Source of the DNA: a virus
Taxonomy: Duplodnaviria; Heunggongvirae; Uroviricota; Caudoviricetes
DNA: 17,219 bases
Strand: one strand, 5' to 3'
Virus record (IMG/VR): IMGVR_UViG_2547132273_000010
Shown here: piece by piece, positions 9,001 through 12,000 of the stretch
Position numbering within the stretch: position 1 is the first letter of the stretch
Layout: every line of letters begins with the position of its first letter
Program-made: the position numbers

Positions 9001-12000
9001 AGTTGATAACCTGTTGCTGAAGTTTTTGTTGCTGAATTTTCTGTTGATGCGGTTGTGAACCAGTCGCAGCATAATATTCATCCACCGCAGCCTGAGCATT
9101 ACCGCCATTCTTGATCGCGTCCGCCGCTACGTTGCTGGCCCCCTTCTGAAGCTCTTTCAGAGAAAGTCCCTGCTGCTTCGGCATAAAATAACCATAATTT
9201 TTCGATATCTCTGCAAATTTGCTGCGATCCCTGACCTGAGCGATAGCCTTATCAACGGGTATCGCCAGCACGGTTTGATCATCAGGGTGCGCACTGCCGT
9301 ATTCTGTTACAGGTTTATGCGCGGTGGAGCCATCGCTGTATGTGAGATCAAGGCCAATAAGTACGTACCCTTCCTGCTGCGCTGGTACGATACTGCCAAT
9401 CCTGGCCTCTTTTATCGTTTTTTCCCCGGTTGAATCAGGCATGCCAATACGCTGTTGTAGTTCCGGGGCAAACACGCCGGAAAGCACATCGAGATTTTCC
9501 GGGGTATTCAGCGAATCGATCGCCATGTCCGGCTTATCACCAAAGATTTTTTGCAGGTTGATCACGGCCTGACCCGCTTTCGCTGCATAGCCTTCGTTTG
9601 ACATAAGAATTAATGGATGTCCCTTTGGCAGCTGCCCGAACAGACGCGTTGCAGCCTCCTGATCGCCAGCCTCAATTGCTTTTCCAAGCGCTTCCATTAG
9701 TGGCTGGCTATGGGCAATCATATCGTTATACTCAAGCCGTCGCTGGTTGTATTTCTGCAACTGGAGTCGCTGCTGCTCCATACCCAGTGACGCATTCCGG
9801 TAATTCTGGTTAGCGTTAAACTCCCTTTCCTTCAGTGCATAATTACGGTCGTCAACTTTGGCTCTGTAATCAAAGTTCCGCTGATCAACGTTTTTATTAT
9901 GTTCAAACTGAGACTGCGCAAACTCAAAATCGCGCTCGTTATTTTTCTGTTGCCGGGCAAGCTGTGCTTCACGCAGACCAAGCTCCTTACGACGGGTCAT
10001 TGCCTGGTCAACGGTGCTGAATCCGGCAAGTAACCCCTGTGCAAATCCGCTCATTCACCACTCCTTAAAACAAAGAACCAGCAATGCCGCCAATTACTGC
10101 TCCAGCAACAGCACCAACAGGACCACCAACGGATGCGCCAATAGCCGCCCCCGTACCAATGCCCGTACCGATATTCTGCTTGTTCTGCGCTTTCTGTTGC
10201 GCCGCCATCTGTTTGTTCGCAGCCTCAATTTCTTCACGTCGTCTGTCTGCGTCACTTATTCCCTGTAATGCCTCACGCCGCGACTGATTTGCAATATCCA
10301 GTAAACCGTATCCCATATTGCCCCCTTACGCTGCCACCAGTTGGCCGCCAACACTCAGTTTCTGTCTTGCCGGTGCAGAAGCCCCCGTCAGAATATTCAT
10401 CTGGCGATCCTGTTCGGCTTCACGGATACCATTTTTCGCGCCAGCAATTGCTAGGGCATTACGTAACCCCAGCGTATTACTGTCGGGATTATCCGGGCGG
10501 TTTACCCCGTATCTCGCCATCTGGTTATCCTGCGCCATCTGCGCTGTACGGAGACTGGAAGTGGCAAGGCCTCCCACCCGTGCAAGCTGTGCATTCATCA
10601 GACTGTTGTTCTCCCCAAGGTCAGCCAGCCTTGCTACACGGGGTAAATATCTGGTGCGCCAGTCGTCGTATTGCTGGCGGGTCAGCGCTGCGGATGTCTG
10701 CCAGTCCCCCTGAGGGCGGGCTGCTCCGGTATAACCGTATCTTGCAAGTGTTTCGTATTTACCGTACTCCATAATCACAGTCTCCAGTTCTGAGCCTGAT
10801 GCTGAATGGCATTAGCGCCGGTGCCAGGTGTTTTAGCACCGCCACTTCCTCCGCTACCGCCAGCCTTATGCATCGCATATGCACCTGCCGCACCCAGACC
10901 AGCGCCAACAAGAGAGGCTCGCCCCTGCTGTTTCGTAAACGCCGCCTGTGCATCCGATTTAGCTTTTGCCAGACTGCTGTCTGCCAGAGAGTTAAAACTC
11001 TGTAACGCATCCGCCTTCTGACCAGAACCGAGAGCGGCAACATCCTGTAGCCCGGCAACATACTTATCTGCCTGCGATACCTGCCCCCGTGTGGTTGTGT
11101 CAATCTGCCCGGTTACCTGATCACTCTGGTTCGCATTCATTACCGCGTTAAAGCGACCACTGGACGGGTCAACACCGGACTGAGCAAGATTACCCGCCAG
11201 CTCCCTTCGCGCTTCACCAAACTGTTTCTGATAACCAAGATTTGTTGTGCCAGCGATATTGTCGTACTGCTGCTCACTGTTAAGGTCATCGACCTTTTCC
11301 ATGAAGTTATCTTCAGCCGGGCGGAGGATATTTTTGTAATCCTGCCACCCTTTCCAGGCCACTTCTTCCTGTGCTATTTGCGCTGCTGTTGGTTTTACTT
11401 TGGTATCACCACCGCCTTTACTTCCACCCATAATGGCCCCCTGGATAACAAAAAACCCTGCCGGAGCAGGGTCAGAATGTGAATTACAATGTTGGTTTAA
11501 ACACAATGATGAAAACTGTAGCAGTCAGACCGCTATCCTGAACACCATGAAGCCATCCTCATCATCCGGCATTCGCTCAAAGCCCAGTCGTTTTCCCAGC
11601 CGGATAAATCCCCGCCTTGCCGTATGGAACTCAGCCCAGCGTCCGCCAGCCAGATGGGTTAATGTCTTCACCTCCGGCAGGTAACGCTCAACGCTGTTAC
11701 TCCCCGTACACACGCCCAGCAACACCAGAACATAAGGGATACCATCAGCACTGAGCACAGAACGCAGCACCAAAAAGCCATCAGGTGCCTCAAAACAAAA
11801 CGCCTGCTTTTTAAGGCAGGCGTCTTTAACTTCATTCATAAATTCAGGGTTGCGGGAATTTCTCACAACACGCTGCATATACCAGAGAATTTTATCGTTC
11901 ATTCTCTCACCTGAAACGGGTGCCATATCGGCTGAACCTCAGCAACCAGTTGACGGGGACTCTCGTCCCCGTCGCGGTTTTCCTACTGCTTACACTGTAA

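Follow-up and report, generated by a model that had tools for sequence, protein, structure and literature searches.

A terminator-like hairpin between two distal late genes of a 933W-like Stx2 prophage, and a more widely conserved hairpin inside the gene upstream

The element considered here is a terminator-like hairpin in the short gap between a 133-aa gene and a 218-aa gene of the tailed-phage record IMGVR_UViG_2547132273_000010, a stretch of 17,219 nt that is called, at its full length, the window. The 1701 nt tested (window 10700-12400) are 100% identical to the Shiga toxin 2 (Stx2) phage P13374 of E. coli O104:H4, which is 933W-like, and equally to many chromosomes of Shiga toxin-producing E. 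coli, and about 190 other 933W-like (Sepvirinae) Stx phages match the same region at 90-99% identity. According to the list of open reading frames (ORFs), the minus strand carries every real gene of the window, in the annotated order internal virion protein, tail tip fibre, 92-aa gene, 205-aa gene, lom, hok, 133-aa gene, 218-aa gene, 150-aa gene, 83-aa gene, 421-aa gene and a gene for a giant 2806-aa LPD5/LPD38 protein. The 133-aa gene is a core gene, placed by synteny directly upstream of the 218-aa gene in all relatives, and the 218-aa gene opens a conserved block that runs through the 150-, 83- and 421-aa genes to the giant gene. The junction is made up as follows.

11926-11525, minus strand: ORF of the 133-aa gene (11525..11926), phrog_610, function unknown, PHROG match 2.6e-70; also ECs_1237, L0129 and vb_24B_43; stop codon TGA at 11527-11525
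11524-11432, minus strand: intergenic gap of 93 nt between the 133-aa and 218-aa genes
11474..11524, minus strand: AT-rich spacer of 51 nt from stop codon to hairpin, its sequence varying among Stx phages
11454..11473, minus strand: terminator stem-loop GACCCTGC-TCCG-GCAGGGTT, 8 bp with 5 G-C pairs
11471-11466, 11465-11462 and 11461-11456, minus strand: core stem, CCCTGC, loop TCCG and GCAGGG
11445..11455, minus strand: U-rich tract, T6 (11455-11450), then G, then TTAT
11437..11441, minus strand: Shine-Dalgarno-like GGGGG, 5 nt ahead of the ATG with CCATT between; variants GAGGAG or AAGGAG
11431-11429, minus strand: ATG start of the 218-aa ORF, which ends at 10775
10775..11431, minus strand: 218-aa gene, phrog_611 (weak match, virion structural protein family); also ECs_1238 and L0130

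The hairpin has the sequence features of a Rho-independent terminator, namely a G+C-rich stem, a short loop and an adjacent U-tract on the transcribed strand. Extension of the stem to 8 bp adds one A-U and one G.U pair, with two T of the T6 run shared by the extended stem and GTTATCCA following that run, and the loop is a UNCG-type tetraloop, C(UCCG)G. The isolated hairpin folds at -14.6 kcal/mol, is present in both the minimum-energy and the centroid structure given by RNAfold, and is also reported by a consensus terminator scan. The terminator stem alone stands out, and the folding z-score of the whole region is 0.01; therefore there is no larger RNA structure around the junction. An earlier note on this DNA had described CCCTGC-TCCG-GCAGGG plus T6, followed immediately by GGGGG and ATG, within 11432-11524. 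The hairpin is there on the minus strand, the coordinates are exact and the order of the parts is as described; the word "immediately" has to go, given that 8 nt separate the T-run from the GGGGG. The same note had allowed that resequencing might make the hairpin disappear, and this can be discarded: 238 complete E. coli genome records carry the 106-nt junction at 99% identity or more, and 88 phage records carry the 351-nt region around it at the same level, so that hundreds of independent assemblies agree and the junction sequence is not a sequencing error.

In P13374, the q gene lies at 22717-23151 and is followed on the same strand by stx2AB and by the lysis, terminase, head and tail genes, with the junction at ~49.2 kb; the Q antiterminator is thus encoded ~26 kb upstream of the junction, on the same strand and outside the window. 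Sp5 of strain Sakai is organised like P13374, and its Q is annotated as ECs_1203. A search of the rest of the prophage for an antiterminator, which the earlier note had proposed together with the idea that a Q- or N-like factor might be required, therefore finds Q in the parent phage, and an N/nut-type system is needless to explain the layout. In Stx phages, Q antitermination of the PR'/tR' module has been established experimentally (PMC7547250), and the Q-loaded polymerase blocks terminator-hairpin formation processively (PMC9388147). By consensus scan only, no sigma-70-like promoter was found on the minus strand from 12999 to the giant gene (scan to 338), and because none was found between the hairpin and the genes from the 218-aa gene to the giant gene, these genes need read-through. 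Q lies upstream on the same strand, the same-strand array is uninterrupted, and no internal promoter was found for the distal genes. By its annotated order, the gene block of the window is the distal end of the late operon.

Published expression data bear directly on this arrangement. In phi24B lysogens, lom is expressed constitutively, uncoupled from induction (PMC3342100), and the downstream giant gene needs induction for its expression (PMC3342100), with which RNA-seq agrees (PMC4651098); therefore, something between them must stop the transcription of lom and hok. In addition, the tables from Hfq cross-linking and analysis of cDNA (Hfq-CRAC; Tree et al. 2014) show the intergenic region between lom and the 133-aa gene (ECs1236-ECs1237) to be Hfq-bound on both strands in uninduced enterohaemorrhagic E. 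coli (EHEC). Taken together with the phi24B data, this means that lysogen transcription starts upstream of the junction and stops short of the distal genes, and such a pattern is what stacked terminators would produce.

The Hfq-CRAC tables also bear on the explanation that the junction hairpin ends a 3'-untranslated-region-derived, Hfq-binding small RNA (sRNA), like the StxS, HnrS or Pas sRNAs of the prophages of EHEC and enteropathogenic E. coli. Late regions of EHEC prophages do encode such sRNAs, each with an intrinsic terminator at its end. Against this, the tables that list the ECs1236-ECs1237 region hold no sRNA candidate or intergenic region at ECs1237-ECs1238, the junction matches no known Rfam family at gathering or relaxed thresholds, and the spacer is variable and contains no promoter-like site by consensus scan. 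We consider this explanation very improbable. As for individual candidates, HnrS is located in other prophages (Sp9, Sp10 and Sp12), PasA, PasC and PasD map close to Q and to the lysis genes, and an Rfam scan of the window returned neither IsrG nor IS009, the typical Rfam neighbours of PasB.

We favour, with confidence a little above even, the reading that the junction hairpin is a functional Rho-independent terminator within the Q-antiterminated late operon of this 933W-like Stx2 prophage, which would stop Q-independent transcription in the lysogen and be overridden by Q on induction. In the lysogen, polymerases coming from Q-independent upstream starts (the lom moron, the hok/sok locus or spurious ones) would be halted at the junction hairpin, which would act as a further barrier behind the lom terminator and a hairpin within the 133-aa gene and so leave the block from the 218-aa gene to the giant gene silent. 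On induction, polymerase having acquired Q at PR' ~26 kb upstream would be unable to form terminator hairpins in its exit channel, would read through the junction and would express the promoterless downstream genes. Insulation of the distal block would then be the role for which the hairpin is selected.

The hairpin does not stand alone. Under a strict rule (perfect stem of at least 6 bp with at least 4 GC, and at least 5 T within the next 7 nt), the window contains 5 terminator-like sites compared with 0.26 +/- 0.46 (maximum 2) in 100 dinucleotide shuffles, a ~20-fold excess, and four of the five lie on the coding strand, three of these being intergenic. Besides the junction hairpin, the coding-strand sites are the following.

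12314..12332, minus strand: terminator directly 3' of lom (ACCCGCTGTGATGGCGGGT followed by T6)
11800..11823, minus strand: intragenic hairpin of the 133-aa gene (ACGCCTGC-CTTAAAAA-GCAGGCGT, then TTTGTTTTG)
8737..8756, minus strand: terminator separating the 421-aa gene from the giant LPD5/LPD38 gene, its T7 running into ATG 8729

The last of these is probably the other junction to which the earlier note referred when it counted two occurrences of the layout in one operon. That count was too low, given these four hairpins in the window and at least nine after Q in Sp5, where the late strand bears nine strict hairpins beyond Q, seven of them intergenic: after Q, after the portal, major capsid, ECs_1224 and lom genes, and at the ECs_1237/1238 and ECs_1241/1242 junctions. 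The one after Q lies 46 nt beyond its stop codon, at the place expected of tR', and is putatively tR' itself. On the plus strand of Sakai (NC_002695.2), the counterparts of the four window sites fall at about 1,292,429-1,292,436 (after lom), 1,292,943-1,292,951 (intragenic), 1,293,288-1,293,296 (the U-tract of the junction) and 1,296,005-1,296,012 (before the giant gene); Term-seq data for this strain are described in PMC7547250 and deposited at GEO.

Such a series invites the explanation that these hairpins attenuate late transcription in a graded manner during lytic growth, with the Q-modified polymerase being not fully terminator-proof, so that each hairpin would trim transcripts and lower the dose of the low-copy distal virion or ejection proteins. 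At least nine hairpins follow one another on the late strand beyond Q, and among them are those after the portal and major capsid genes, where steps of stoichiometry are expected; the same idea has been put forward for phage L (PMC8022706); and the genes downstream of the junction are plausibly low-copy, one matching a virion structural PHROG weakly and another encoding the giant LPD5/LPD38 protein. In contrast, the nozzle mechanism of Q prevents hairpin formation altogether (PMC9388147), and distant relatives carry the same genes at a tightly coupled, hairpin-free junction, so that dosage control here is no general need. We therefore regard graded attenuation as unlikely, if still deserving attention.

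The comparison with relatives was made by gathering the loci of relatives of the 218-aa gene from genomes and viral contigs, which gave 69 distinct upstream sequences. The gene order from the tail fibre to the 133-, 218-, 150-, 83- and 421-aa genes and the giant gene is kept from Escherichia to Aeromonas and Oceanisphaera. The hairpin is missing from 48 of the 69 sequences, belonging to Pectobacterium, Serratia, Brenneria, Yersinia, Edwardsiella, Aeromonas and some Salmonella; in most of these junctions the stop codon of the 133-aa gene lies within the next Shine-Dalgarno sequence (e.g., GTGTGAGGTGAnnATG), and in some, instead, a small membrane ORF directly adjoins the 218-aa gene at its start. 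The other 21, a degenerate Salmonella case (L041) included, carry the hairpin and come only from Escherichia, Citrobacter and some Salmonella-type elements, always with 20-25 nt from hairpin to start codon and with an independent Shine-Dalgarno sequence. Among these the stem is intact in all except L041, whose degenerate hairpin has a 4-bp stem and folds at -7.4 kcal/mol; the loop takes the forms TCCG, CCCG, TTCG, TTTG and CCG, the flanking sequence has diverged or has given way to other DNA, a T6 or T7 run is always present, and two sequences (L095 and L096) show one compensatory stem change from C:G to A:U. Between the 133-aa gene and the hairpin, relatives have either a spacer of 22-51 nt or cargo, of which there are three instances.

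L013, 1692-2293, opposite strand: phd-doc module, in E. coli E7-1N7
L043, 3003-3937, same strand: YafO toxin-antitoxin pair, in Salmonella, directly followed by the hairpin
L041, 3780-3940: small hydrophobic membrane ORF ending RWW

Small ORFs of the RWW type also abut the 218-aa gene in Yersinia and several viral contigs. The variable cargo or spacer and the hairpin-free distant relatives together indicate that the hairpin, which brings its own Shine-Dalgarno sequence, was inserted secondarily; in more distant relatives the two genes are translationally coupled at this junction, which has since become a cargo site.

It could then be argued that the hairpin is a relic, i.e., that an inserted cassette, for instance a toxin-antitoxin module, brought the hairpin in as its terminator, and that the hairpin persists by inertia with no function in Stx phages. 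The junction is indeed a cargo site in the three relatives listed; in L043, the hairpin after the YafO module appears placed as a cassette terminator would be; more distant relatives have no spacer at all; and the L041 hairpin has degenerated. Set against this is the stem kept intact in 20 other sequences from E. coli, Citrobacter and Salmonella-type phages, where identity in the downstream protein is no more than 55-60%, where loop and flanks differ, and where one pair shows a compensatory change. A functionless relic thus seems improbable. Neither does the hairpin end a moron unit, since the 133-aa gene upstream of it is core and present in all relatives, nor is it a repeated or mobile element of the repetitive extragenic palindromic (REP) kind: among 5426 E. 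coli genomes, the 106-nt junction occurs in 420 and only in this context, the single partial match being the same junction in E7-1N7. The attR annotated over the T-run of the junction in phage GER2 (MG710528; L008 493-504) was judged to be an artefact of automated att prediction.

The conserved T6-T7 run also bears on the explanation that the hairpin protects or processes mRNA rather than releasing polymerase, serving as a 3' protective stem for the upstream part of a processed late transcript, or of a lysogenic lom-hok-133-aa transcript. The UNCG-type tetraloop stem is stable enough for this, and comparable hairpins stand after strongly expressed genes, the major capsid gene among them; the T-run kept right after the stem is, in contrast, a feature of termination and needless for protection against exonucleases. 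We give this explanation little credence.

Several points weigh against the terminator reading that we favour and should be kept in mind. Two terminators lie upstream of the junction hairpin (12332-12314 and 11823-11800), which may make a third superfluous. In E. coli E7-1N7, the phd-doc module upstream of the hairpin is transcribed away from it. Across relatives, the presence of the hairpin is not correlated with that of lom or hok: a Salmonella locus (L045) has both genes and a tight, hairpin-free junction, and a Citrobacter locus (L014) has the hairpin and neither gene. Finally, a covariation test of the junction stem, which has low power, was not significant (90% of cells paired, one double-change pair, and 111 of 500 shuffles doing no worse), and therefore the evolutionary support comes mainly from conservation among fairly close relatives. 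Evolutionary support is better for the terminator before the giant gene: three unrelated stem sequences occur at the same position among Escherichia, Salmonella, Citrobacter and Edwardsiella, and relatives also show a compensatory replacement of G:C by A:T.

The intragenic hairpin of the 133-aa gene is more interesting than the one at the junction and far more conserved. It spans codons 35-45 at 11823-11800, is followed by TTT TGT TTT, and is shared across two orders, Enterobacterales and Aeromonadales, in genera that reach from Escherichia to Aeromonas and Oceanisphaera. Synonymous third-position entropy is 0-0.3 bits at the hairpin compared with 1.3-1.9 bits at four-fold-degenerate codons of equal conservation (Gly, Val, Arg, Pro, Thr) in the rest of the gene, and all 81 sequences use TTT for Phe43 and Phe45. 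In the Aeromonas clade, one U-A pair of the stem has become A-U, one G-C pair has become U.G and one pair has been gained, and these changes alter amino acids (Cys-37 to Ile, Gln-41 to Val). Across 55 distinct sequences, 89% of cells pair, with six double-change pairs, most of which trace to one clade event; none of 500 shuffles reaches the observed value, and slid controls collapse. In most of the distant relatives, this hairpin is the only strict terminator-like site within several kilobases, and the 133-aa gene is tightly packed with its neighbours. It is absent from Rfam.

These features suggest that the intragenic hairpin may work as a conditional terminator sensitive to translation or to antitermination. 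As a tentative extension, which we think rather doubtful, the stacked hairpins might form a tandem checkpoint ahead of the block from the 218-aa gene to the giant gene, with the junction hairpin as its youngest member and the intragenic one as its oldest, a conserved conditional terminator within a coding sequence that would be silent when the gene is translated or the polymerase antiterminated, and active on uncoupled or unmodified transcription; such a checkpoint would gate the injected polyvalent giant protein and, if it exists, would be a kind of control as yet undescribed in these phages.

The lom and hok island upstream of the junction comprises the following parts.

13028-12999, minus strand: promoter-like site of lom, inside the annotated 5' end of its 244-aa ORF
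11983-12290: type I toxin-antitoxin locus resembling hok/sok, situated between lom and the 133-aa gene
12123-11983, minus strand: hok ORF, Hok/Gef by the Prokaryotic Genome Annotation Pipeline (PGAP), with a weak Rfam match to sok
12130-12135 and 12150-12158, plus strand: boxes of the predicted promoter of 24B_1 RNA (TTGACT / CGCTAACCT)

With its promoter-like site, its own terminator and its constitutive expression, lom looks like a complete moron (window 12304-12356 and 12999-13028), and it is accessory, being absent from E7-1N7 and the distant relatives; lom and hok are both accessory genes, and the terminator at 12332-12314 is their own. The Hfq-CRAC candidate EcOnc53, reported as "not detected" by northern blot, maps antisense across the lom terminator. 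24B_1 was published as a "microRNA-size" RNA of phage phi24B with an 80-nt precursor, and its predicted promoter is exactly antisense to the 5' end of hok, at the place expected of a Sok promoter; therefore, the 80-nt precursor is probably the Sok antitoxin RNA. The 24B_1 paper does not mention hok, and a later review from the same group makes no connection between the two. Just past the hok stop codon, a 10-bp palindrome (GACGGGGAC-TCTC-GTCCCCGTC, 11951-11974, plus strand) has a T-rich tail only on the plus strand; it may form a stem at the 3' end of the hok mRNA or else terminate antisense transcription. Two further observations concern annotation. The 2806-aa ORF call and the P13374 annotation start the giant gene at ATG 8758, within the terminator stem 8756-8737, and this start is probably wrong; RefSeq/PGAP starts the gene 39 nt downstream (window 8719-8758, minus strand), giving 2793 aa. 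A 333-nt contig of the Xanthomonas pisi assembly (NZ_JPLE01000316.1; L038) encodes a fragment 91% identical to the 218-aa protein of E. coli phages and is probably contamination of that assembly.

The junction hairpin is an ordinary, already recognised kind of feature and by itself adds little, given that intra-operon terminators in Q-controlled late operons are known and that both of their candidate roles are in print. What the comparison adds, as a modest gain, is that terminators of this kind can have been inserted recently, in particular lineages, at junctions that are otherwise coupled in translation, that they mark insertion points of cargo (morons or toxin-antitoxin modules), and that three or four of them are stacked between a lysogen-expressed lom/hok island and strictly late genes in a medically important Stx phage. 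This comparative picture makes a concrete, testable case for the question of what intra-operon terminators are for.

The closest known system is that of the P22-like phage L, which also has predicted intrinsic terminators between late genes served by a single Q-type antiterminated promoter, and for which the same two candidate roles, partial termination or the stopping of non-antiterminated transcription, were proposed and the roles called "not known" (PMC8022706). Since that paper states both hypotheses, which are also those of the earlier note, the junction hairpin adds one more example to a kind already known; it differs in belonging to a 933W-like (Sepvirinae) podovirus and in that its junction is hairpin-free in more distant relatives. 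The PR'-tR' module of lambda and Stx phages, with its 6S RNA or StxS (PMC7547250, PMC9388147), shares with it the intrinsic terminator and, as we infer here, the read-through by Q-loaded polymerase, in the same phage and presumably with the same Q. In contrast, tR' is promoter-proximal and is itself the switch, whereas the junction hairpin is ~26 kb downstream, has no Q-binding or pause element and has no known sRNA product. Moron cassettes are reportedly units of promoter, gene and terminator (Juhala et al. 2000, cited in PMC4104026), as in lom of lambda or 933W, and lom just upstream of the junction fits this definition. The junction hairpin resembles these cassettes in lying at a cargo insertion site and, in one relative, after a toxin-antitoxin cassette, and it differs from them in following a core gene and in its lack of correlation with lom or hok. 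Finally, the insulator terminator of Tn916 is reported to be an in-element terminator that prevents premature expression and is overridden by the antitermination of the element itself (PMC11658703); this element is unrelated and its antitermination system is different, and we therefore offer it as an analogy only.

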